From IMG/VR virus record IMGVR_UViG_3300035701_007101: a stretch of DNA of 64,000 nt; one strand, 5' to 3'. The stretch's first letter is position 1. The number at the start of each line of letters is the position of its first letter. This document shows, one piece after another, positions 1,202 through 39,789 of this stretch. The translations under genes and the position numbers were made by a program. Origin of the DNA: a virus (Duplodnaviria > Heunggongvirae > Uroviricota > Caudoviricetes). The notes under the pieces were generated by a model that did not search any database, had not been told where the DNA came from, and was given only the letters and a program-made list of their open reading frames with translations.

Positions 1202-1927
1202 TTATAGATAATCATATTGATCTACTATGCTTGTCAATAAATCAAAGTGTTTTTCGTATACATGTAAACTATTTGAATGCCAATTTATATATCCAATTTC
1301 TAAATTTGGATAAATTTTTTTTAAATCATTATACAATAAATCATAGACATAACATTTAAAATAAAAATCATTTAAAAAACCATAAATTAGATCTGAACTT
1401 CTGAAATGTACACTACTTATTAGTTTATTATTTCGAATAAAAAATGTATTACTTAAACAACAAATAAAGTCAGACATTCCATTTTTATTAAAATCCATCC
1501 ACATACTTGGTCTATTATAAATCATGATTGCTCTTCTACTATCTTTGTTCATTCTTAATTCATTTAAGCAATTATTATATTGATTATAATTTTCAGACGA
1601 AAAAATGCACCAGCCATAATTTGAATTAACTAATTTTTCATCATCTTTAGAACATATCATATTCCAAATTTGAATATTATCTACATAATTTTTTATAGAT
1701 AAAGATTGACTTAAATACCATTCAAGCTCTTTCCTACAATAATTTTCATTTGTTTTCCTTATTTTAAAATCTAAAACAGGTTGACTTGGGTTTAAGTTTA
1801 AAATTTGAGCATCTATAAGTTCGACAGTTTTTACACAACTTTTATCTATAACAAACTCTGAATTTTTTATTTTTCTATACAATTCAAAAAAGTATTGCTT
1901 AAGTATTGCTTCATTTTTCATTCTCAT
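1202..1927 (-). CDS. dCMP hydroxymethylase (T4 gp42-like, thymidylate synthase fold)
   Basis: VNSNYGW, DSRRAIMIYNRPSM, GMSDFIC (catalytic Cys), RSSDLIYGFLND (Asp where dUMP-specific ThyA has Asn), SLHVY; closely follows T4 gp42 motifs. Confidence 0.88.
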   Translation of the reverse strand: MRMKNEAILKQYFFELYRKIKNSEFVIDKSCVKTVELIDAQILNLNPSQPVLDFKIRKTNENYCRKELEWYLSQSLSIKNYVDNIQIWNMICSKDDEKLVNSNYGWCIFSSENYNQYNNCLNELRMNKDSRRAIMIYNRPSMWMDFNKNGMSDFICCLSNTFFIRNNKLISSVHFRSSDLIYGFLNDFYFKCYVYDLLYNDLKKIYPNLEIGYINWHSNSLHVYEKHFDLLTSIVDQYDYL

Positions 1928-2223
1928 TCTTCTCCTAAAATGAATTTAAATTTTGATATGCCTGTTACTGCCAACTCTTCAAGCTTACATTGTTGTAGAT
2001 CTCTTATTATTAATTTACCGAGATTTGATTTTGGTATAAAAATTATATTGATTTTTGATCGATCAGTATCATCAGTTTCACAAGTAAATTCAACATTATC
2101 TGACACATCACATTTATACACTTTATCTAAATTAGCTAATATGGTTTGTAAATTGTTAGCTATTTGTGCTTCAGCCTGTTTTGATGACTTTTGACCAATA
2201 TGTTGGCACATTGATTCACGCAT
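1924..2223 (-). CDS. hypothetical protein
   Basis: ORF track; overlaps neighbour by 4 nt. Confidence 0.55.
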   Translation of the reverse strand: MRESMCQHIGQKSSKQAEAQIANNLQTILANLDKVYKCDVSDNVEFTCETDDTDRSKINIIFIPKSNLGKLIIRDLQQCKLEELAVTGISKFKFILGEE

Positions 2224-2305
2224 TGCATTTCCTATATTGTACTATTAATTTATGTTCATCAGTACAAATTTCATTTCGAGCGTCTAAATATCGATTAAGG
2301 TTCAT
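2216..2305 (-). CDS. 29-aa small ORF MNLNRYLDARNEICTDEHKLIVQYRKCNA
   Basis: Manual translation; fills the gap and overlaps the next gene start. Confidence 0.3.
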   Translation of the reverse strand: MNLNRYLDARNEICTDEHKLIVQYRKCNA

Positions 2306-2344
2306 AATTGAATTAATTTACAAAATTTGTCGTCAACTTTACAT

Positions 2345-2378
2345 AAAAAAAGCTGCTATATTTCTATAACAGCTTTTT
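2345..2378. terminator. intrinsic terminator downstream of HU gene (possibly bidirectional)
   Basis: aaaaagctg-ctata-tttc-tataa-cagcttttt inverted repeat with A/T runs on both sides. Confidence 0.7.
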
Positions 2379-2400
2379 CATTTTTAAAGAGGAGTTGTTC

Positions 2401-2799
2401 TTATTTCTTCTCTTCAGTTGACTCCGGTGCATCTTCAACATATTGTTCAAGTTCAATTTTGCCATTGACAAGTTGTTTGAAACCCTTGAGCGGTCTAAAC
2501 TTTACAACATCTTTTTCGGGAACATTAGTCATTTTGCCGAAAGATTTGCGAATTGCAGCTTTTTTATGAATCTTGACAAATTTTCCGAATCCAGAAATCT
2601 TAACAAATCCCTTATCAAGCATGCCTTTTTTGATAGCATAGATGACAGCTTGAATTGCAACTTTTGATTCACGACGTGAAAGACTTGTAACTTCCTGAAC
2701 AACTGCAATAAGATCAGTCATTCTGAACTGTTCTGTCTTAGATTTGCGAACCTTTTTAGTTTTTGTTGCGGCAACATCTACTTTTGCCTCTTTAGCCAT
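2401..2799 (-). CDS. HU/IHF-family DNA-binding protein with Lys-rich N-extension
   Basis: VKISGFGKF and VVKFRPLKGFKQLVN motifs; GGAGG RBS upstream. Confidence 0.88.
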   Translation of the reverse strand: MAKEAKVDVAATKTKKVRKSKTEQFRMTDLIAVVQEVTSLSRRESKVAIQAVIYAIKKGMLDKGFVKISGFGKFVKIHKKAAIRKSFGKMTNVPEKDVVKFRPLKGFKQLVNGKIELEQYVEDAPESTEEKK

Positions 2800-2817
2800 A
2801 AAAAGCCTCCTATTTTG

Positions 2818-2842
2818 AATTATGAATTAATTATGAATTATG
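2818..2842. repeat. three AATTATG copies upstream of HU RBS
   Basis: AATTATG at 2818, 2829, 2836. Confidence 0.45.
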
Positions 2843-2993
2843 CATTAATTAACTTTAAATGACAATATTATTGTTTGTTTTTTTTATTTATTAATTTACA
2901 TTTTTTCATATATTATCATAACGAACGTTGCATGTCGCTTATAAACGTTGTCTGCGCATGTACGACGAATTATTAAATTAAAGAATTAATGAG

Positions 2994-3911
2994 CTATGCA
3001 AAGATAGCAACAAACTCGTCGAATTTTTGAAGTTGCGAAGTAAATGAATATGTTTTAAATAACTCCTTCAAATACAAAAAATTAGGCTTTGCTTGTTCAA
3101 TTTCAAGATTAACGTCCATATCTAACTTGATAGTTACTAGTTGCTTTGCAAGTTTCAATATATCTTTTGACGAATTAATCTTTTGTTGTAAGTTGTCACT
3201 AACAGGTGCTTTCTTATCTTTCTTAAACTTATAATGTATATCATTATTTATAATATTATCTATATTACCGTTACATTGAATCAATTCTGCTGCAGTTTTT
3301 TTGCCTACACCATCAATACCTTCAATGTTATCAGACGAATCACCCGTTAATGACAACCAACTTACAAATAAATTTGGTGCTATTCCATATCTCTCTTTAA
3401 CTTCATCAGGTGTAATCAATTTATCATCTTCTTGACCAGCACCAGGATGTAGCACATGAACATTATTACTTACTAATTGATTAAAATCTTTATCACCAGA
3501 AATAATTAGTACTCTATAACCTTTTAATCGTGCTTGTTTCGTTAATATACCAATAAGATCATCTGCTTCAACATTTGCAGTTTGACATTGTAATACGCCC
3601 AGTGCTTTTAAAAATTCTTGAGTTATTCCAATTTGAAATAAATAATCAGGCGTTCTTGATATCCTATTAGCTTTATATGTTGAGCATAATGTGTTTCTAA
3701 AGCCTTTGCCTGGACCGTCCCAAACAACAATTAATTTATCGTTTTCTTGCTTAAGATCTTTATATATTTTTTTGATTGATTGAATGAAACCAAAAGCAGC
3801 ACCAGTTAGAACTTCTTGACCATCAATAACAGCTCTCAAATGCTGAAATGACGGCACATGAAAAGTTCTACTTAACAAATGACTAGCATCAACTAAAATA
3901 ACTTTACTCAT
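2994..3911 (-). CDS. 5'-3' exonuclease / flap endonuclease (PolA N-terminal-like)
   Basis: ILVDAS, VVWDG, YKANR, EADDLIG, ISGDKDF, LTGDSSDNIEGIDGVGKKTA. Confidence 0.93.
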   Translation of the reverse strand: MSKVILVDASHLLSRTFHVPSFQHLRAVIDGQEVLTGAAFGFIQSIKKIYKDLKQENDKLIVVWDGPGKGFRNTLCSTYKANRISRTPDYLFQIGITQEFLKALGVLQCQTANVEADDLIGILTKQARLKGYRVLIISGDKDFNQLVSNNVHVLHPGAGQEDDKLITPDEVKERYGIAPNLFVSWLSLTGDSSDNIEGIDGVGKKTAAELIQCNGNIDNIINNDIHYKFKKDKKAPVSDNLQQKINSSKDILKLAKQLVTIKLDMDVNLEIEQAKPNFLYLKELFKTYSFTSQLQKFDEFVAIFA

Positions 3912-4416
3912 TTTCTTTATCTTTTGCTTCTTTTGCTTTTAAAATTTTATCAGCATCTTCTCCGTGTATACCATAACGTTGTAAAAGATATGAAAAATCT
4001 TGAACATCATGCTTTAGACATTTTCTGTAATCTTTTGAACCTTCATCAAAACCTTGTTCAGGTATATGCATCAGTTCATGTAAAATTAATAAATATTTTG
4101 CAGATTTTTCAATCGTAACCCAATTTTCAAAATGAACTGTTAATATGTAATCAACATTAGAGAAAAATGCAAACATGGGTTTTAGACCATAAATTTTCGC
4201 TTGTATAGTTGATTTTTTCTTCGAAAATGAGATGTAGCCAATTTTATTTGGTCGTATTTGAGATAGAATTTCTGGATATAACTTAATAAGATCCATAACA
4301 ATTGGAAAAATGTCTTCTTGCTTTTGCCACTTTGGTGTAGCAGGTTTTTGAGGCTTGTCTTCAATGTCATCTTTAACTTCTACAACATTGTCTTCAACAT
4401 TTTGTGGTACTGGCAT
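3904..4416 (-). CDS. putative phage metallopeptidase
   Basis: LILHELMHI (HExxH) followed by LKHDVQDF. Confidence 0.7.
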   Translation of the reverse strand: MPVPQNVEDNVVEVKDDIEDKPQKPATPKWQKQEDIFPIVMDLIKLYPEILSQIRPNKIGYISFSKKKSTIQAKIYGLKPMFAFFSNVDYILTVHFENWVTIEKSAKYLLILHELMHIPEQGFDEGSKDYRKCLKHDVQDFSYLLQRYGIHGEDADKILKAKEAKDKENE

Positions 4417-4437
4417 AGAATTCTCCTCTTTTTAAAA

Positions 4438-4525
4438 TGGCCCACTTGGATAGTTTTGAACTATCTAAATTGTAATACTATCGCGAATCGACATACAATC
4501 TAAACCCTCTGTAGAGTACAAGTGG
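4438..4525 (-). tRNA. atypical tRNA-like RNA, 88 nt, encoded CCA; one parse gives Asp(GUC) with a 14-nt anticodon-loop insert
   Basis: Perfect 7-bp acceptor CCACTTG/CAAGTGG + G + CCA; T-arm GATAG-TTCAAAA-CTATC; T8 A9; ATTGT/ACAAT stem; D-arm non-canonical. Confidence 0.65.
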
Positions 4526-4575
4526 TTATGATAATAGTATTATATACCGGAAATTATGATAAATTTATGAACGAT

Positions 4576-6192
4576 TTAAAATTTGCAGGCTTCGATAAAC
4601 CAATCAGGTAGAATGTCTTTATTTTTCTTGATAAACCATTTTGCGCTACTATCAAAAATATAAGCAGTTCCCCAATCTTCTTCTGATCTAAAAATTCTAC
4701 CATAACTCTGTACTAATGTCAAACATGTCTGCCAAGTATACCAGTCTGGATCTATTTGCATTCTTCTAGCAATTTGTTTATCACCGATATAAAGATGAGG
4801 TATTTTAACAATCACTTCCCAACGAGCTAAATCATCTTTTAAATCGAGACCTTCAGTCATTGATGGTGAAACTAATACACTTGCAGTTTTAGATGATAAA
4901 AATTTACTTAACATCTTCTCTCGCGACTCAGAATCATGAAATATTAATCTATCATTGTTGCAATTATCTCTAATATAGTTGGCAATTTTATACGAGTGAC
5001 AGTGAACAAGCCCGCGTTCTTCTCTATGATAATCTAAAGCTTTATTTAAATCAGTGACAATATTTGGTAGTGTTTCTTGAATCTTGTTTAAATTCATATA
5101 TCCACTATTTGCAAAAAATATTTTTCTATTCTCTGCTGGAAACGTAGACGGTGTTCGTACAAATTGAGCTTCGTCAGCGTTAATACCAAGACTTCTACAA
5201 AAGCTATTTTTATCTAAAATTGTTGCTGACAGATATATTCTATGTTCACCGAGATTAAGTAATGAATCACCTGCAAATAGATTGATTGTTAATGGTCTAA
5301 ATACTATTCTTTTCATTTTTAATTTTTCAGTTTTTTCAATAGTAAAAATCCATTCAACATCATTTAGAGTATTTAGAAACTTGTTCATTCTTCTATACAG
5401 TCTATCAACTTCATCAATTTGTGACACTAACTCTGATGCTTCACCTGATAATTTTTTAAATTGATGAGAATCTCTATTTAAATTAACTCTATAATTATTT
5501 AAATTATTTAATTCTTTAGTCTTGCTAACTAAAATATTATTAACAATACTAACATTTTCTTTTATCCACTTATGATATTCATCTAATGTGTCGTATGAAG
5601 GAATGTTGACAGGATAGCCTACTCGCTTAAACATATATTCTGACAATAAAAACTCGATGAAATTTAAAACTTCTGATTCAATACAGTGAGCTTCATCTAA
5701 TATCAGTAATTTTCTTTTAGTAAACGTTTTTTTTGGATCACACTCAACAACACTTAAAAGATATGCATAATTCATCATTGCAACTTGAGCACCAGCTGTT
5801 CTCATTTTAGCAATTTGATATAAGCAAGTGCCGTTTTTATAACAATCTTTTCTTGCTGATTCATAGCATTCATTACACATAGTGGGCGCTCCCAAAAATG
5901 TGCATTCATAATTTCCGCGACCTTTTAAAACTGATATTCTTGAATCTTCAGTGAAATCACGAACATATTGATCTTGAAGTATTTTTTGTGAAGTTAAGCA
6001 ATATGCATTTGTTGACCATAAACCGCAAGCAATTGCAACAGGTGACTTACCAGAACCTGTTGGCATTTCAATGATAATGTCTTTTATACCTTTATCAAAA
6101 AACTCTTGAATTTTTTCTATAGTTTCTTTTTGATGAAGTCTGTATGATGAAAATGGAAAAAAATCAGTTATATTGTTATTAGGTTTTAACAT
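4576..6192 (-). CDS. DinG/Rad3-like SF2 helicase
   Basis: EMPTGSGKS, LILDEAH, YLSATI, SMTEGLDLKDD, QSYGRIFRSEEDWG. Confidence 0.9.
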   Translation of the reverse strand: MLKPNNNITDFFPFSSYRLHQKETIEKIQEFFDKGIKDIIIEMPTGSGKSPVAIACGLWSTNAYCLTSQKILQDQYVRDFTEDSRISVLKGRGNYECTFLGAPTMCNECYESARKDCYKNGTCLYQIAKMRTAGAQVAMMNYAYLLSVVECDPKKTFTKRKLLILDEAHCIESEVLNFIEFLLSEYMFKRVGYPVNIPSYDTLDEYHKWIKENVSIVNNILVSKTKELNNLNNYRVNLNRDSHQFKKLSGEASELVSQIDEVDRLYRRMNKFLNTLNDVEWIFTIEKTEKLKMKRIVFRPLTINLFAGDSLLNLGEHRIYLSATILDKNSFCRSLGINADEAQFVRTPSTFPAENRKIFFANSGYMNLNKIQETLPNIVTDLNKALDYHREERGLVHCHSYKIANYIRDNCNNDRLIFHDSESREKMLSKFLSSKTASVLVSPSMTEGLDLKDDLARWEVIVKIPHLYIGDKQIARRMQIDPDWYTWQTCLTLVQSYGRIFRSEEDWGTAYIFDSSAKWFIKKNKDILPDWFIEACKF

Positions 6193-6247
6193 AAATTATG
6201 CACTATAATTATACCTTTTAAAAGTCTCATATCCCAAAAACCTGTAT

Positions 6248-6418
6248 TCATGATATTACATGACGACGATCTTTCATTTCATATATCTCATTGTCTTTTT
6301 CCTGTATTTCTTTCTTTGCATTGTCTAGTGCAATTTCTTTTTCACATAAAGGACAATCAAAAACATGGTCGGGATATGTCACTACTGTCCCATTTTCATG
6401 TCGATCACAACTTCTCAT
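6248..6418 (-). CDS. 56-aa Cys/His microprotein (not in ORF track)
   Basis: Manual translation MRSCDRHENGTVVTYPDHVFDCPLCEKEIALDNAKKEIQEKDNEIYEMKDRRHVIS; ATGA overlap with upstream stop. Confidence 0.6.
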   Translation of the reverse strand: MRSCDRHENGTVVTYPDHVFDCPLCEKEIALDNAKKEIQEKDNEIYEMKDRRHVIS

Positions 6419-7536
6419 AAAAAAATCCTTTTGTTAATTTGTACTATACTATTAAATTTTTTCATAACATTTTTAATATCAAATGGTTCTAACTTTTCAA
6501 TATGCTCATCTAATATTTGCTGTTTTTTAGTATTTGACAAGCTCAATAACATTTCAATTGCTTGAACTAAATCATAAGCGTCAGAAACTATTAGTGATTT
6601 ATTGATAAACTTATCAATTCCTTTTTGTTCAGCTAAACCAATTGCAAGCACGCCGTTTGCGGTCGTCTCGTGTATTCTTTGAGTTATGTGACCGTGTTCA
6701 GCATAATTCTTTTTACATAATAAAACTGACGACAAACAGTGTCTATAAACTTTATGCATGTCCTTAGGTAATATTCTATCTCTAAATAATACACGTGGGA
6801 AGTTTATGCTATTTCTATTTGCTACGTCAGGATATTTTAACCAATTGCCTACAAATATTGTTTGAAATGGATATTTAACTGAAAAAGGATTAATGAATCT
6901 ATAAAGTTGATCATCTCTTTCATATTGCGAACCAACATATCCAATCAAATAATCAAAATCTTTATTAACTTTAGTTCCTCTAATTTGTTCTAAATTACAA
7001 GGAAATAGTAAAGTCTCTCTGGGATATAATTGATCTATAAGAGGATATAATGCAGGAGAAATGATTATAGGTTTATTGACAAAACATTTAAAAATTTTAT
7101 AATCTTCTTCTATTATTTTTTCATCTTTGTCCCAAATTAATATCTGTGTATTTGTTAAACCATAATGTGACAATAAATCCATTTGTCTATCATAATCAGG
7201 TGTATAAGCAGCGCTTGACTTATCAACATCAAAATTTCTTTTGAGTATTTTCCATCGCCATTCTAAAAATAAGATATTTATTTGCGGATATCCAGTATCA
7301 TACTGTATTTTGCATAATGTTTGTTTTTGATTATCTAAATAATGTCTATTTGTGTCAAACAATGGTTGATTAAACTTATTTACATCTCTATTTTGTTGAA
7401 GCCAAATTATAGTATAGTTATCATCAATTAAATTTTCTATGAATAATGATCTAGTAAGTCGACCACCATCAGGTGAATCATTTTGACCATCGCCAACAAA
7501 TCCCCAAGCTGAATAACCGATCTTAATGTTTTTCAT
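6415..7536 (-). CDS. GT-B glycosyltransferase resembling T4 beta-glucosyltransferase (candidate DNA glycosyltransferase)
   Basis: YLIGYVGS...KKNYAEHGHITQRIHETTANGV parallels T4 BGT DKNYNDNFITLRVWETMASDAV; same module as the dCMP hydroxymethylase. Confidence 0.65.
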   Translation of the reverse strand: MKNIKIGYSAWGFVGDGQNDSPDGGRLTRSLFIENLIDDNYTIIWLQQNRDVNKFNQPLFDTNRHYLDNQKQTLCKIQYDTGYPQINILFLEWRWKILKRNFDVDKSSAAYTPDYDRQMDLLSHYGLTNTQILIWDKDEKIIEEDYKIFKCFVNKPIIISPALYPLIDQLYPRETLLFPCNLEQIRGTKVNKDFDYLIGYVGSQYERDDQLYRFINPFSVKYPFQTIFVGNWLKYPDVANRNSINFPRVLFRDRILPKDMHKVYRHCLSSVLLCKKNYAEHGHITQRIHETTANGVLAIGLAEQKGIDKFINKSLIVSDAYDLVQAIEMLLSLSNTKKQQILDEHIEKLEPFDIKNVMKKFNSIVQINKRIFL

Positions 7537-7588
7537 AGTTAGTAAGTCTTTTTCATATTAGTATAATCAGTCATTGTTTCAATGATTC

Positions 7589-8086
7589 TTAATAACTTTC
7601 ACTTTCAATTCTTTTTACGTTCTTTGCATTTTTTTCAATGAAAGCTGTAGTAAGCTCTTGAGGTGTAACGTTCCAAACAATACATAGATTTATAAAGAAA
7701 TGAAGTATGTCAGCCAATTCATCTTTAATATTGTCTACGTTAATAGTCTTTTTAACTTTTTTGTGTGATTTGAAATTTGTTTCACGTAATAATTCATGAG
7801 TTTCTTCTAGAAGATATAAAACCATGTCTTTTGTATATTCTTCTCTTTTATCTATCGTCATATTCGAAAAAATATAACCTAAAGACTGTTGTATTTTATT
7901 TTGCAATTCAAAAAATAACGTTAAGCTATCAACATTAATGTTTATTATCGGTTCTTCAAAATCTTTAGATTCAACAGACTTTAATGAATATGCTTTATTT
8001 AAATAATAAATTAAAACAAAAATCACTATTAATAAGAGTATAATAAATAAAGATTGTGCTTGTATCAATTGTATTATAGAATTCAT
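7589..8086 (-). CDS. all-alpha dNTP pyrophosphatase (dCTPase/dUTPase, MazG-like) with N-terminal hydrophobic segment
   Basis: LLEETHELLRETNFK and IKDELADILHFFINL motifs; N-term LFIILLLIVIFVLIYYL. Confidence 0.78.
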   Translation of the reverse strand: MNSIIQLIQAQSLFIILLLIVIFVLIYYLNKAYSLKSVESKDFEEPIININVDSLTLFFELQNKIQQSLGYIFSNMTIDKREEYTKDMVLYLLEETHELLRETNFKSHKKVKKTINVDNIKDELADILHFFINLCIVWNVTPQELTTAFIEKNAKNVKRIESESY

Positions 8087-12908: not shown

Positions 12909-14106
12909 ATGAATACTCTAAAATTAAAATATCTAACCAGTAAAGAAAATAGAAACATTATTTTGAACTACATGAAAAATCAAAATAATGTCATTAGATT
13001 TCTATACAATAGATTACAAGAGAACAAGCTACTCTCACAAGTACAACTTATAGCTCTATCTAATTCAATGAATAACATATTCATAGACTCTTGGTTCAAA
13101 CAATGCGCGATGTATAAAGCTAAAGAACTTAATGAGAAAGAAAAAGTTATTTTTGGTGGTAAGAAGTTGTTTTTTGAGCGATTTAAGAATAGAATAACAA
13201 AAGAAGAATTTCAAATAAAGAAATTGTTACCATTACATGTTATAGGCGAGTGTAATTATTAATGACAAATTACTGCCTGTAACAATTTCTTTAGACTTAG
13301 ATTTTGTTTACATTACTTATGATGAGAATTATTTGAAAGAAGAGATTGTTAGTAAAGTCAAAAATAGAATTATGACTTTAGACTTAAATCCTAATTATAT
13401 AGGATATTCTATAATTGACTGGCAAAATGAAGATGATAAGTGTATAGTAAAAGCAGGTTGTATAAGTATAAAGCAATTGAATGATAAGCAATTTGAATTG
13501 AAAAAGTTAAAAGCAAGTTGTGAAGATGAAAGAATGAAATATTTAGTAAACAAGAGAGTGTTTGAAATTTTTGAGATAAGCAAGTATTTAGTAAATGTTG
13601 CAAAACAATATCATGTAGAGTGTTTTGGTATAGAAGAATTGTCAATTAAGTCGAGTGACAAGGGTAAAGGAAGCAAGTATAATAGGTTAGTTAATAATTT
13701 GTGGAATAGAGGGAAATTAGTAAGTAATATAGAAAAGCGACTAAATATTTGTGGTATCAAGTTGTACAAGATATTACCACAATATTCAAGCTTTGTTGGA
13801 AATATAATGAATAGGGAGTATTTTGATCCAATAGCTAGTAGCATAGAAATAAGTAGAAGAACTTATAAATTTTCAAACAAATTAAAGCCTGTACTTTTTC
13901 CGGACTTTAATAAGTCTATTAGTGTTATCATTACGTCATTGGAAGAATTTAGTGATAACGTGATTAAATTAGTAGACATTAAAGATTGGCTAGAGTTATA
14001 TAGACGAGTAAAACACTTGAAATTGAGGTATCGAGTGTCTTTAAGTGTTGAGCTTAGAGTTTTTAGATTGTTTAATAGAAAGTCATTATTATATGAATTT
14101 TATTAA
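12909..14106 (+). pseudogene. tnpB: TnpB-like RuvC nuclease (IS200/IS605-related), disrupted by internal deletion/frameshift near 13246-13260
   Basis: ORFs 12909-13262 and 13333-14106; second frame open from 13246 (INDKLLPVTISLD); RuvC DLNP, IEEL, YFDP; colinear with 37582 protein. Confidence 0.78.
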
Positions 14107-14134: not shown

Positions 14135-15433
14135 ATGATTGATGCAATTAAAATAATCAAAAAACTAGATGATAACGGCTTTCAAGCAGTATTAGCTGGC
14201 GGTTGTGTCAGAGACTTAATTCTTGGTTTACCATCAAATGACTATGATATTGCTACAAATGCTACGCCTGAAGTCATAGAGTCATTATTTGAGAAAACAA
14301 TACCAGTTGGCAAATCATTTGGCGTTATAATTGTCATAGAAAATGACAAACAATATGAAATTGCTACGTTTCGTGAGGACGGAAAATATTCTGATAATAG
14401 GAGACCAGATTCAGTTACCTTTGGCTCAATAGAAGAAGACGCTAAAAGACGAGACTTAACGATAAATGGCATTTTTTACGATCCAATAATAAATAAATAC
14501 TATGATTTTGTCAATGGCGTAGACGACATTCAACGCAAAATTGTTCGTTTTATTGGCGATCCCAATAAGAGAATTGAAGAAGATAAACTAAGAATATTAC
14601 GCGCTTGTAGATTTTCAATTAAATTTGATTTTGAGATTGAAAAAGAATCTTTCGAAGCTATTAAAAATCATGCTCATGAAATTCAAACAGTTTCAATTGA
14701 ACGTATAAGTGATGAATTTATTAAAATATTACGTTTAAGAAAACCCAAAAAAGCATTTGATTTACTATTTGAAACTAAACTCATTGACTACGTCTTACCT
14801 GAAATAAGAACTTTGCAAGGTGTAGAACAACCAATTGACTATCATCCCGAGGGCTGCGTTCTTACACATACAATAAAAACACTTGAAAATTTGCCTGAAA
14901 ATGCATCAGATGAATTATTGATGGGCATGTTATTACATGATATTGGAAAACCTGCAACTTTTGAAATGCTTGATAGAATTAGATTTAATGGTCATGATAA
15001 AAAAGGAGCTGAGATAGCAGAAGTTATTCTCAAAAGAATGAAATTTTCAAATGATTTCATTGACAGAGTAGTTTCTCTAGTTTCAGATCACATGAAATTT
15101 ATGGCTGCACCTATCATGAAAATGTCTACTCTCAAACGGTTTGTACGACAACCTCATTTTAATGAACATCTAGTTTTGCACAGAGCAGATTGTTTATCAT
15201 CTCATGGCAATTTAGACAATTATAATTTTGTTGTACAAAAGATGAATGAAATACCGCCAGAGAAAATAAAACCACCTAAATTAATCACAGGTAAAGATTT
15301 ATTAGATTTAGGCTTTATAGAAGGGCCTATTTTCAGAACAATTTTAGATGATATTGACGATAAACAATTAGAAGAAATAATTAAAGATAGGGAGTCAGCA
15401 CTGTTATATGTCAAACAACAATATACAAAATAA
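14135..15433 (+). CDS. cca: CCA-adding tRNA nucleotidyltransferase with HD domain
   Basis: AGGCVRD, DYDIAT, RRDLTING, EDKLRILRA, LLHDIGKP. Confidence 0.9.
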   Translation: MIDAIKIIKKLDDNGFQAVLAGGCVRDLILGLPSNDYDIATNATPEVIESLFEKTIPVGKSFGVIIVIENDKQYEIATFREDGKYSDNRRPDSVTFGSIEEDAKRRDLTINGIFYDPIINKYYDFVNGVDDIQRKIVRFIGDPNKRIEEDKLRILRACRFSIKFDFEIEKESFEAIKNHAHEIQTVSIERISDEFIKILRLRKPKKAFDLLFETKLIDYVLPEIRTLQGVEQPIDYHPEGCVLTHTIKTLENLPENASDELLMGMLLHDIGKPATFEMLDRIRFNGHDKKGAEIAEVILKRMKFSNDFIDRVVSLVSDHMKFMAAPIMKMSTLKRFVRQPHFNEHLVLHRADCLSSHGNLDNYNFVVQKMNEIPPEKIKPPKLITGKDLLDLGFIEGPIFRTILDDIDDKQLEEIIKDRESALLYVKQQYTK

Positions 15434-36495: not shown

Positions 36496-37412
36496 TTAAT
36501 ATGAAAAAATTCAATGACGGCGAAATAATTTCAGCAATTGTTTTAATAAAATCAGTTGTAAAAGATACTGCAAAATCAGGCAATGATTATTTACGACTTG
36601 AAATCTATGACGGTCAATCTACTATAAATGCATTTGTCTGGGACACTTCAATTTATAATTTCAAAGAAGGCGAAGTCGTCAAATTAAAAGGTAAATATGG
36701 TACATATAATAACAAAGCAAAATTAGATGTGATTGACGTATCTAAAACAACTGAGAAATTAAAATTACCGTCATTGAATTCTTCAGAAAAAGCTGACCTC
36801 ATTAAAAGGTTTAATAAGCTACGAGAATTGATTATTGATGATGATTTCAAATCAATCTTTAGTTCTATATTTGATAATGAAAAAATATGGGAAATGTTTA
36901 TAGCAGCACCTGCAGCAAAATCAAATCATCAAGCATATCTTGGAGGTCTACTTCAACATAGTGTTGAAGTAACTGAATTAGCTTATAATCTATACGAAAA
37001 AGACAAAGCAAATATAAATCTTAGTTTATTAATTACTGGTGCATTATTACATGACATTGGTAAAATAAAAGAATATATATTTGATACTAAGATTGACAGG
37101 TCAACATCAGGTAAATTAGTAGGTCATACGTCACTTGGCTTATTAATCGTAGTCAATTTTTTACCTGAAGAAATACCTGTTAAAAAATCAACAGAATTGT
37201 TTCATTTAATTCTTTCTCATCATGGAAAACGAGAATGGGGCGCACCAATAGAACCTTTAATGAAAGAATCAGTTATCTTACACAATTGTGATATGATTAA
37301 TTCGTATAGTAGTAGATTTAATGAAGTGAAAGAACAAACAAATAACGAATTCTCTGAGTTTGACGAAATTTATAAAAGAAACTGGTATTTGTGGTCAAGT
37401 CATGAAAATTAG
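36492..37412 (+). CDS. YhaM/Cbf1-like 3'-5' exoribonuclease (OB + HD)
   Basis: N-terminal OB fold, HQAYLGGLLQHS, LLHDIGK, ILSHHG, CDMI. Confidence 0.88.
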   Translation: MINMKKFNDGEIISAIVLIKSVVKDTAKSGNDYLRLEIYDGQSTINAFVWDTSIYNFKEGEVVKLKGKYGTYNNKAKLDVIDVSKTTEKLKLPSLNSSEKADLIKRFNKLRELIIDDDFKSIFSSIFDNEKIWEMFIAAPAAKSNHQAYLGGLLQHSVEVTELAYNLYEKDKANINLSLLITGALLHDIGKIKEYIFDTKIDRSTSGKLVGHTSLGLLIVVNFLPEEIPVKKSTELFHLILSHHGKREWGAPIEPLMKESVILHNCDMINSYSSRFNEVKEQTNNEFSEFDEIYKRNWYLWSSHEN

Positions 37413-37548
37413 CTTTTTCTTTGCATTATATGATTTTTGGATTGGGTTGTTCTATGATAAGAAAAAACGAATAATCTATGTGTGTTTAATACCTTGTTGC
37501 GTTATAAAAATAACTCGGATTGAAGCAGATAAGAAAAAAGAAAATTAA
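37402..37548 (+). CDS. small hydrophobic hypothetical protein ending KKKEN
   Basis: FFFALYDFWIGLFYD...IPCCVI; ATG 37402. Confidence 0.6.
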   Translation: MKISFFFALYDFWIGLFYDKKKRIIYVCLIPCCVIKITRIEADKKKEN

Positions 37549-37574
37549 TGTTTCTACTTCTTTTTAATAGAATA
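37531..37574 (+). repeat. gene-end/intergenic duplication, copy 2, directly upstream of tnpB
   Basis: 41/45 match to 31051-31095. Confidence 0.7.
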
Positions 37575-37581
37575 ATAATTT

Positions 37582-39195
37582 ATGTTAACATATAAATTGA
37601 AAATTAAAATTTGTAGCAATTCTAGTTATGTTTTTAAAATGCAGCAAGATTATTCTTTTGCTTTTAGAAAATTGTATTCTAATTTTGATAAAATTAAAGA
37701 CAAAGATTTTATTAAAGAACTTTGTAATAAATATTCTTTAGATTCTTGGCAATTTGAGTCGTTGAGAACAGAAGTTGAGTCAAAAATTTCTAAAACAAAT
37801 GCTTTAAAATTAAATAATATAAAACAGCAAGAAGAATGTTTAGAAGAATTAGAATTACTAAAAGAAAAAGCAGGAAAAAAAGTAAAAAGAAAGAAATTTA
37901 AGTTGCAGGATAAATTGAATAGGTTGAAGCAATTTAGTGATATTGTTTTTGGCAGTAAAGTGTTATTACGAAAGTTGTCTTTTTTGTGTAATGATAAATT
38001 AAATGAAGACGAGATTAAAAAAATAAAAGCCGAGTATCAAAACAAAAGAATTCTACCAATAACAATTGGAGGTGAGACATATCATAAAGGTAATAGAAAG
38101 TTTGATTTTGAATTAGAAAACAATAAAATCATTTTTAAACCAGTTTACAAAACTAAAATACATGTTGAATTCATTTGTTCTAGCAAACAACACACTATTT
38201 TATTACAACTACAAAATTTAATTGATCAAAATAACATTTTACCTGTTACTATAAGATTGTCGACAGAATATATTTGGCTTATGTTTGATGAGGAGATATT
38301 GAATGGTTACGGTTTGAAAGAGAAAGAGTTAAAGCAAGAGTTGAAGTTAGTTGCAAAAGAATGTAAAGAGATGAGAAAAGAGATAGCGAAAAAGTATTAT
38401 AGGGAGCAAGAAAGTAGAAAGTTAGTTGGTAAGATTGGAAATAGGTATTTAGCAATAGATTTGAATCCTGAGTATATTGGTTGGAGTGTTTGTGATAAGA
38501 TTGATGAAGGAATGAAAGTAATTGAAAAATGTTGTTATGATTTGAAAGAGTTATCTAAAAAGCTAAACGTTGAATCTGCGCATCTTGATCAAATTTATCA
38601 GAACAATAAGAGAAAGCATGAAATTTGTTGCTTGATTAAAGATTTGTTTACAAAAGCTACTTATTATAGAGTAGCTTATTTTTGTATAGAAGATTTGAAT
38701 TTTAAGAGTCCAGTTGTAAATGAATTTAGTAAACAATTTAATAGTAAAGTAAAGAATATCTGGCATAGAAATTTGACGTGCAATTTGATAAAGAAGTATT
38801 GTAATTGTTTAGGCATACAAAAGATAGAAGTTAATCCAACTTACACAAGTTTTATTGGAAATATACAGTATGAATATTTTGATCCAATTAATGCTAGTTT
38901 AGAAATTTGTAGAAGAAGTATGTATAAGTTTGAAAAAGGTGCTTTCTTGCCAAAAGTAACTAAAGAAGATCTTGACACCATGAGTAGATTGATTAGTGAT
39001 GATCAGTTGAGGGATGTTCAAGATAAAATTGAGTTATTGAGAAAGTTAAAGTCTTTGAGTAGTTGGCGAGACTTTTTTAATCTTTTCAAACAGATGGGAG
39101 TTAAGTACCGTCGATCGTTGAATGATTTTAAAAAATCATTTGAAAGATATAGTCTTTTTTCATTAAAAAGTAAAGTGCTTTTTTATATTTTTTAA
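37582..39195 (+). mobile_element. tnpB: intact TnpB-like RuvC nuclease (IS200/IS605-related, no transposase nearby, no CxxC finger)
   Basis: KGNRKF, AIDLNPEYIG, IEDL, VNPTYTSFIG, YFDP: all three RuvC acidic residues present. Confidence 0.82.
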
Positions 39196-39207
39196 TAAAA
39201 TTGATAC

Positions 39208-39272
39208 TTAATAGTGTTGAAATAACTTTATGACTGAAACAGCTAGAAAAAAATTTAATAGTGTTGAAATAA
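39208..39272 (+). repeat. 18-bp direct repeat TTAATAGTGTTGAAATAA x2 with 29-nt spacer
   Basis: Exact copies at 39208-39225 and 39255-39272. Confidence 0.9.
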
Positions 39273-39616
39273 TTAGGAAATATAATAAAATCAGCCTTGA
39301 ATTGTCGAAGCACTATATAAAATTTCTATTATTTCAAAACAATAAAAAGCCAGTTATCTGTACAGGCAAAATTGTTAACGTTCAACGTTTGCGAGCAACA
39401 GCTGAAAAATTTAATTATATTTTAACTATAAGAAATTATAAAACAAAAAAACATTTTGCTCGTAGACAATATGTACCATTAAAAAATATACGAATATATG
39501 AAAAAAACTTTTTACAATTTATTAACTCAGACAAAGTTCTTATGAATTTTTTTCAAAATCATTTAATTCTAGAAGAACAACAACAATTAACCAAGTTCGA
39601 TTTTTTAACCATGTGA
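39230..39616 (+). CDS. hypothetical protein
   Basis: ORF track; start lies inside the spacer. Confidence 0.5.
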   Translation: MTETARKKFNSVEIIRKYNKISLELSKHYIKFLLFQNNKKPVICTGKIVNVQRLRATAEKFNYILTIRNYKTKKHFARRQYVPLKNIRIYEKNFLQFINSDKVLMNFFQNHLILEEQQQLTKFDFLTM

Positions 39617-39789
39617 TGAGGGTTGTCGTGTATGACAGGTTCGCGATGTCAGAAACTGTTTAAATATTATTATATGGGTAACTGATAAGTAGTAGTATTA
39701 TTCATTATATATTGAATCAATACAAAAAACTTAACTCTTATCACATGGTTTTTCTTATAAAATCTTGTACAAGATAAAGGACTACAATA

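Follow-up and report, generated by a model that had tools for sequence, protein, structure and literature searches.

The named insertion sequence closest to the element described here is ISCaje4, which is annotated as a member of the IS200/IS605 family, is inserted among the replication genes of Campylobacter phage CP220, and carries a resolvase-like (serine recombinase) fragment beside its TnpB. Our element, likewise phage-borne, lies in a 64,000-nucleotide (64-kb) stretch of the Caudoviricetes record IMGVR_UViG_3300035701_007101 from IMG/VR; the whole of this stretch is called the window. The element spans positions 37549-39211 on the plus strand, encodes a TnpB-like protein designated P0001, and is followed by a gene designated P0002, with an 18-nt direct repeat at the boundary. 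IS607-type TnpB elements in phages are a known kind of system, to which this locus adds a new member. We hold it to be very probable that a transposase-less, end-trimmed element of the IS607 type sits in P0002, and that the 18-nt repeat is the edge of a duplication of about 47 bp that rebuilds the start of the gene. Whereas the TnpB of ISCaje4 has 465 residues and keeps a resolvase-like open reading frame (ORF) next to it, P0001 has about 150 extra N-terminal residues, has no TnpA, and belongs to an element with trimmed ends. A parallel of another sort is offered by the free-standing homing endonuclease genes of T4-like phages, which lie within genes or in the gaps between them and leave incomplete gene copies behind. 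They resemble our locus in placing a selfish nuclease gene in a large phage, with a functional host gene beside a decayed partial copy, but their recognition of DNA is protein-guided, whereas here it would be RNA-guided.

Among characterized systems, the IS607-type IStron of Clostridium botulinum, with its TnpB and guide RNA (omegaRNA), offers a close comparison (PMC10690162). Its TnpA is a serine recombinase, as in relatives of our element; its omegaRNA overlaps the 3' end of tnpB and stops at the element's right end (RE), with the DNA flanking RE serving as guide, an arrangement predicted here as well; and RE differs by one base from the target-adjacent motif (TAM), UCGG against TGGG there and CTTAA against TTTAA here. 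The window locus differs in lacking a group I intron, in having a TAM-like motif with a TTAA core instead of GG, and in encoding a divergent protein without a zinc finger. ISDra2 TnpB (PMC8612924; PDB 8h1j) shares with P0001 the RuvC fold, the D/E/D catalytic triad and the principle of a guide derived from RE, and 8h1j is among the fold matches reported below; it differs in its Y1 transposase partner (IS200/IS605), its length of 408 residues and its zinc finger, and no sequence profile links it to P0001. The TldR proteins (PMC10705468), which are nuclease-dead repressors, are likewise phage-borne relatives of TnpB that have no transposase and whose guides match the 5' region of a gene. TldR proteins, however, have lost their catalytic residues and target host genes, whereas the triad of P0001 is invariant and its guide match lies in the phage's own neighbouring gene, where duplication explains it.

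The repeat, the empty sites and the duplicated gene start

The 18-mer TTAATAGTGTTGAAATAA begins at 39208, separated by 12 nt from the tnpB stop codon that ends at 39195. It occupies 39208-39225 and 39255-39272, its only two exact copies in the window, and the match extends to 20/22 when 39206-39227 is compared with 39253-39274. The 29-nt spacer between the copies (39226-39254) holds the P0002 start codon, an ATG at 39230, and the second copy translates to F-N-S-V-E-I (P0002 codons 9-14). A 19-mer version of the repeat, allowed up to three mismatches, has five sites in the window against 0.44 expected from shuffles, each of the three further sites having three mismatches. Given that expectation and only two exact copies, the repeat is therefore real and not a matter of chance. 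The initial annotation had reported it, and its coordinates, 18-29-18 geometry, 20/22 extension, ATG in the spacer and FNSVEI peptide all proved exact.

The origin of the repeat becomes clear from relatives in which the site is empty. P0002 (39230-39616, plus strand) is an intact gene for a protein of 128 residues. Its four homologues, at 67-88% identity, are found at the same position in relatives without TnpB: the contigs of L173, L174, L175 and L176/L177 (related loci carry L numbers throughout) show the gene order RNase-Y-like, SLT, HD, small ORF and P0002 homologue, with no tnpB. The empty-site sequence runs uninterrupted as ...gttataaaaataacttt ATG A(C/T)T GAA ACA GCT AGA AAA AAA TA(T/C) AAT AGC GTT GAA ATA ATA.... 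In the window, the last native upstream bases are AAATAACT at 37508-37515 (plus strand), and the same 8 nt occur again at 39220-39227, where the second copy of the duplicated unit starts. They are followed at 37516-37548 (plus strand) by a decayed copy of P0002 codons 1-10 that ends in TTAA and represents the left half of the interrupted target. This fragment is collinear with the empty sites and matches 39230-39258 at 23/29 aligned positions, a score equalled by 0/5000 shuffles and 1/5000 random 33-mers from the window. We had also considered 37516-37548 as the 3' end of a tnpA gene, and dropped that assignment because the match to P0002 codons 1-10 is much better.

The right boundary of the element is fixed by comparison with the nine closest loci, in which similarity after the tnpB stop codon ends at (G)ATACTTAA; beyond that point the sequences are unrelated. 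RE therefore stops at 39211, and only the TTAA of repeat copy 1 belongs to the element. The next bases, 39212-39220, are P0002 codons 10-13 (TAGTGTTGA) and correspond exactly to what comes after TTAA in P0002. Since the sequence after RE resumes where the left fragment stops, the two flanks together rebuild P0002 sequence. From about 39220 onward, AAATAACTTT ATG introduces a complete second P0002 5' region.

Each part of the repeat structure can be accounted for in these terms. Repeat copy 1 (39208-39225, plus strand) consists of the terminal TTAA of RE, P0002 codons 10-13 and the junction microhomology AAATAA. The spacer (39226-39254, plus strand), which is collinear with the empty sites, comprises the native 4-nt leader, codons 1-8 of P0002 and the T that opens codon 9, and copy 2 (39255-39272, plus strand) is ancestral coding sequence. 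The distance of 47 nt between the 18-mers gives the length of the duplicated unit, which consists of a leader of about 10 nt, codons 1-10 and the 9 nt after them. The junction between units falls in the 5-6 nt AAATAA, with which the first unit ends and the second begins. The element splits the duplicated unit unevenly, with about 41 nt on its left and 9 nt on its right, after which the full second copy follows. Within that copy, TTTAA at 39254-39258 would be both the TAM-like motif and the original TTAA insertion site; in the sampled relatives without TnpB it is replaced by TAYAA, so the TTAA site is exclusive to the lineage that carries the element.

A minimal proto-CRISPR unit had been proposed for this locus, in which the 18-mers would be incipient array repeats and the guide would come from the 29-nt spacer. 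The geometry of the repeat and its position directly after the TnpB gene agree with such a unit, and nothing else does. What would be the spacer and the second repeat is the native coding start of P0002, which TnpB-less relatives have as well, and the spacer is self sequence. The repeat shares only TTAA with the conserved RE and scaffold and is not derived from the scaffold, and no CRISPR-type repeat hairpin is required to explain anything. When homologous loci were checked, no repeats with variable spacers, nor this repeat itself, were found among 109 unique relative loci, few of which have any repeat after RE. We give this explanation practically no credence; the picture of a TnpB acquiring a CRISPR array is removed, and an insertion history resolved from empty sites replaces it.

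It is also very improbable that the 18-mers are a regulatory repeat of the phage, an operator or promoter element flanking the P0002 start and unrelated to the adjoining element. Operators can take the form of direct repeats around a start codon, and the native upstream region of the relatives (GCGTTATAAAAATAA) weakly resembles the coding stretch (GCGTTGAAATAA). Yet the relatives hold a single copy of the 18-mer-like sequence, copy 1 begins exactly in the last 4 nt of RE, and there are no more good copies in 64 kb.

The preferred reading would place the element, consisting of a left end (LE), tnpB, omegaRNA scaffold and short RE, at a TTAA within P0002 codons 9-10. It would interrupt the first copy of the unit, whose left part has since decayed, while the second copy would provide the intact gene start. 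By the most likely route, the element would have broken P0002 at TTAA, and one illegitimate crossover with an uninterrupted genome, at the AAATAA microhomology, would then have put an intact P0002 start behind it. Alternatively, a 47-bp tandem duplication may have come first, the element then entering the first copy. In crossing over, IS607 recombinases use a core dinucleotide and leave the target unduplicated (PMC10690162), and the 47-bp duplication is therefore not a product of the transposase. A transposase-made target-site duplication was considered and rejected, as no short identical duplication abuts both element ends and the unit is about 47 bp long and unevenly split. A simple insertion-associated duplication had been the third suggestion in the initial annotation; it is borne out, and is refined here to a target-region duplication that rebuilds the 5' end of the gene.

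Comparable arrangements occur at some related loci. Notable direct repeats among the 109 unique right flanks are those of the window (18 nt), L124 (25 nt), L137 (15 nt), L074 (12 nt) and L003/L004 (15/16). An internal repeat of at least 14 nt is present in the right flank of 3/109 loci, compared with 0.5% of control windows. In L124 (2092-2300), the first copy of a 25-nt repeat begins with the final 4 nt of RE (TTGA) and opens a decayed 82-nt copy (about 25 codons) of the 5' end of the downstream gene; the second copy lies 82 nt further on, where that gene starts. In L003 (3205-3260; identical in L004), it is the 3' end of a minus-strand gene that has been duplicated, and three partial copies of AGCAGGCCCTTTGAAA surround the element; an empty site for L003, sought in viral contigs by way of the neighbouring protein, was not found. 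In L094 (335-449) and L097 (1341-1455), whose proteins are 74% identical, the element lies between the copies of a 117-nt direct repeat (86% identity), about 24 nt copied from the first codons of the downstream gene come after RE, and the real gene lies some 200 nt further on. The order is that of the window: upstream copy, insertion sequence, short gene-start copy, upstream copy, gene. There are thus several documented cases of an element in a short duplication by which the host gene stays intact.

Some observations weigh against the reading we prefer. Repeats shared between left and right flanks were found at 9/84 loci and in 14/237 controls, a difference that is not significant; we therefore call the pattern of an insertion sequence inside a gene-end duplication recurrent, not general. 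The LE boundaries in relatives are set by few loci, and one fixed allele cannot reveal the order of events; when an isogenic empty site was sought among all contigs with an identical P0002, every one carried the element. Finally, the left fragment has acquired about six substitutions and two indels in 29 nt, while the 14-18 nt to the right of RE are identical to copy 2, and at the roughly 25% divergence of the left fragment the probability of zero changes in 14 nt is P ~0.02. Gene conversion could account for this asymmetry, as could selection on the match between guide and target or a left part of foreign origin.

The TnpB-like protein, its family and the element ends

The gene for P0001 (37582-39195, plus strand) encodes 537 residues. 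Its RuvC triad, D293, E370 and D434, in the motifs AIDLNP, IEDLNF and FDPINAS, is invariant in an alignment of 34 family members, which agrees with the earlier description of an intact D/E/D; the loss of RuvC catalytic residues that marks TldR is not seen in P0001. Between RuvC-II and RuvC-III (YTSFIGN to FDPINAS) there are no CxxC pairs and hence no C4 zinc finger. Branches of TnpB without a zinc finger have been reported, some of them rich in viruses (PMC10691335).

Standard models do not recognize this protein. A Pfam scan of P0001 gave no OrfB_IS605, Cas12f1-like_TNB or zinc-ribbon match, a PHROG scan gave no TnpB match, and TIGR01766 reached 22.7 bits, below its cutoff of 32. No PDB chain was matched by a sequence profile of the family, and the predicted fold was therefore used. 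The AlphaFold (AF2) model of P0001 has a predicted local distance difference test score (pLDDT) of 87, and its top Foldseek matches are Cas12f, Cas12k, TnpB 8h1j and RuvC, so that by its model P0001 has a TnpB/Cas12 fold. Similarity searches with tblastn showed P0001 to be 29-33% identical to proteins of Campylobacter phages, Lak megaphages and other huge phages, with 32% identity over 72% of its length (E 1e-29) to the TnpB of ISCaje4. The name TnpB, as given initially, is kept because of the fold, this identity to ISCaje4 TnpB and the TnpA genes found upstream in relatives; the name lacks the backing of a Pfam, TIGRFAMs cutoff or PDB-profile match. Single-protein scans of viral contigs with P0001 or P0002 found no close relatives, but a large protein collection holds more than 200 relatives of P0001 with 500-570 residues, many of them on contigs of 100-380 kb. 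The locus thus documents a large, Pfam-invisible family of IS607-type TnpB proteins of about 530 residues, without zinc finger, in large phages, with a guide-RNA scaffold supported by covariation and a TTAA-type end.

The assignment to the IS607 type comes from the relatives. In L005, L008-L011 and L012, a TnpA of about 200 residues with a Resolvase domain ends at or overlaps the start of tnpB; a partial copy remains in L002 and a 3' remnant in L006/L007. These relatives show the IS607 arrangement of serine-recombinase TnpA plus TnpB. In the window, a tblastn search for TnpA or a remnant of it gave a best E value of ~0.5, in keeping with the earlier statement that no transposase is adjacent. 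Because the relatives have an upstream TnpA and the window has none, the window element, on this comparison of sequences, is to be regarded as a non-autonomous derivative of an IS607-type element.

Some viral contigs carry two or three family members, as expected of a mobile element. Distant members provide examples, with L060, L066 and L067 on one viral contig and L017 and L019 together on one viral contig; such multi-copy members have conserved ends (e.g. ..TATTGTTTTTGTATATA after the stop codon) and unrelated flanks, direct evidence of present or past mobility of the family within phage genomes. The short contig with the P0008 element (L003) also encodes, at 6138-6962, a canonical TnpB (Pfam OrfB_IS605 and Cas12f1-like_TNB), and two unrelated TnpB types thus co-occur in one phage.

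Both ends of the window element are recognizable. LE (37549-37581, plus strand) is 33 nt long and has the motif TTTCTAyT..TTTTTA, which the LEs of L012 and L003 also carry, with no tnpA between LE and tnpB. RE (39196-39211, plus strand) is shortened to 16 nt and ends in the conserved GATACTTAA. From stop codon to RE terminus there are about 48 nt in close relatives, 16 in the window and 11 in L003/L004. The roughly 38 nt missing from the window lie, in L093 and L002, between two TTTTAATAAAA repeats, and the short RE is consistent with deletion between two such direct repeats. The TnpA-type subterminal motifs are gone from the window element. Because the protein tree groups P0001 with L093, which has a long RE and a TnpA (support 100/99), and places L003 elsewhere, tnpA and the middle of RE were lost twice, independently, in the window and L003 lineages. 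The two lineages document independent reductions to a tnpB-only cassette in which the RNA scaffold and the terminal 9 nt were kept.

The predicted omegaRNA and its match to P0002

The last ~230 nt of tnpB, together with RE, are predicted to encode an RNA scaffold at 38969-39211 (plus strand) with four covarying stems (38969-39024, 39048-39075, 39085-39122 and 39142-39182, from nine sequences) and a terminal closing stem, ending in ACUUAA. Across the alignment, 91.5% of stem cells are paired, compared with 38-56% when partners are shifted, and there are 199 covarying sequence pairs versus 8-44 with shifted partners. The window sequence forms 44/46 of the stem pairs. Relatives with a long RE have a closing stem of GUCUUUUUU with AAAAAAGAU ahead of ACUUAA, and the short RE of the window retains the base of this stem (GUC/GAU and UUUU/AAAA). 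No Rfam family was found in a scan of 37300-39700. The covariation supports a structured RNA that overlaps the 3' end of tnpB and would act as an omegaRNA-like scaffold ending at 39211. By analogy with ISDra2 and IS607 elements (PMC8612924, PMC10690162), we infer that the guide is read from 39212 onward; the predicted guide-encoding DNA is the first 20 nt after RE, 39212-39231 (plus strand), placed from the RE boundary and the known biology of TnpB. The left flanks of L003, L005 and L012, each ending in TTTAA, together with the target in the window, point to this sequence as the likely TAM-like motif. The element probably still makes a TnpB-omegaRNA complex.

The predicted 20-nt guide reads TAGTGTTGAAATAA and then CTTTAT. 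Compared with 39259-39278 it matches at positions 1-14 and 16, and this P0002 target is preceded by TTTAA where RE ends in CTTAA. The initial annotation had raised the possibility of a guide aimed at the neighbouring gene; the match itself, 14 contiguous nt beside TTTAA, stands, but it follows automatically from the duplication. We regard the guide match to P0002 as a by-product of the duplication. It nevertheless provides a natural test case for how much self-complementarity such nucleases tolerate, the match being 14 nt long and TAM-flanked.

We consider it unlikely that the match is functional. If it were, the TnpB-omegaRNA complex would bind or weakly cut the TTTAA-flanked P0002 codons 10-14, acting as a regulator of P0002 or as a homing or exclusion nuclease against co-infecting uninterrupted relatives, its own copy being shielded by distal mismatches, by DNA modification or by both. 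The agreement at 15 of the first 16 positions and the TTTAA at the target against CTTAA at RE would fit this. The one-base difference between TAM and RE parallels that of TGGG and UCGG in the C. botulinum IS607 IStron (PMC10690162), and the native guide of ISDra2 is about 16 nt long (PMC8612924), so that the match would amount to 15/16. Although tnpA and the TnpA-type subterminal motifs have been lost, the element has kept its ORF, triad and omegaRNA stems intact, and the L003 lineage was reduced likewise, independently; the guide-side copy is undiverged, whereas the left fragment is diverged; and modified DNA is possible, given a thymidylate-synthase-family enzyme, a weak glycosyltransferase match and a dUTPase/MazG protein in the window. 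On the other hand, duplication yields the match automatically and needs no selection, and the sampled relatives without TnpB would be poor targets, as they have TAYAA where the window has TTTAA and differ from the guide at position 4. In L124 a full match of 21 nt lies downstream, which speaks against any general requirement for the junction to disrupt the guide. The TAM, the RNA ends and the activity are inferred, and the sampled alleles are all identical, so that selection is not measurable. Still less weight goes to a fuller form of the idea, in which the transposase-less complex has been kept because its guide recognizes the TTTAA-flanked start of P0002, as regulator or as phage-against-phage homing or exclusion nuclease, with the junction in the guide, and perhaps DNA modification, protecting its own copy. 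Were this doubtful proposal true, the pattern of an insertion sequence inside a gene-end duplication would mark a way in which such elements repeatedly become established in essential phage genes.

We looked for other matches to the guide and the repeat, and none that turned up was meaningful. A search of 185,579 prokaryote genomes gave no exact match to TTAA plus 16 nt of the guide, and viral contigs yielded 12 single matches to the 18-mer, all of them away from any TnpB or P0002 relative. An unrelated viral contig of higher GC content (L186, 1033-1059) has a 23-nt exact match to TTAA and the first 19 guide nt, at the stop codon of a gene for 305 residues and with no TTTAA in front of it. This match is most likely due to chance (post hoc p ~0.02).

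The surrounding phage genome

The window is AT-rich (GC content ~29%) and looks like part of a jumbo phage; contigs with the same protein as P0001 reach 262 kb. In Pfam and PHROG scans, the genes adjoining the locus were assigned as RNase-Y-like, SLT lytic transglycosylase, HD-domain and a PHROG without known function. P0002 itself had no match in Pfam, PHROG or NCBIfam, and the leads found in an atlas were sub-threshold only. The locus is identical in four other assemblies, with one substitution elsewhere, and in at least four samples, and is therefore fixed in this phage lineage. The phage occurs in the JGI samples 3300036761 and 3300037137 and in SRR11721627 and SRR11719878.

Immediately upstream of the element is a small ORF (37360-37548, plus strand; likely ATG at 37401), whose last 11 codons come from the decayed P0002 fragment. 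Its native part (37401-37515; compared with L173/L174/L176) is conserved and hydrophobic, with a natural length of about 38 residues. In the relatives it ends ...ATA ACT TTA TGA, whereas the window reads ...ATA ACT CGG ATT ... AAT TAA. The native stop codon overlaps the ATG of the P0002 homologue (ATGA), which suggests that the small ORF and the P0002 homologue may be translationally coupled. In the window this overlap is lost, any such coupling would be broken, and the small ORF is 10 residues longer.

Within the replication module, the stretch 1202-8086 (minus strand) encodes a thymidylate-synthase-family protein, a protein with a weak glycosyltransferase match and a dUTPase_2/MazG protein. 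These genes would be compatible with a modified-base pathway, and modification of the phage DNA is possible.

The window contains a second TnpB-like gene at 12909-14106 (plus strand), which had been described as a broken copy. It is indeed broken, into ORFs at 12909-13262 and 13333-14106, but at 33% identity to P0001 it is a paralogue and not a copy of this element. It lacks about 45 residues between the N-terminal helices and RuvC-I, and its RuvC motifs are still legible as LDLNP, IEEL and FDPIAS. A short flank, ..ATTACCTTA, separates it from the next gene at 14135.

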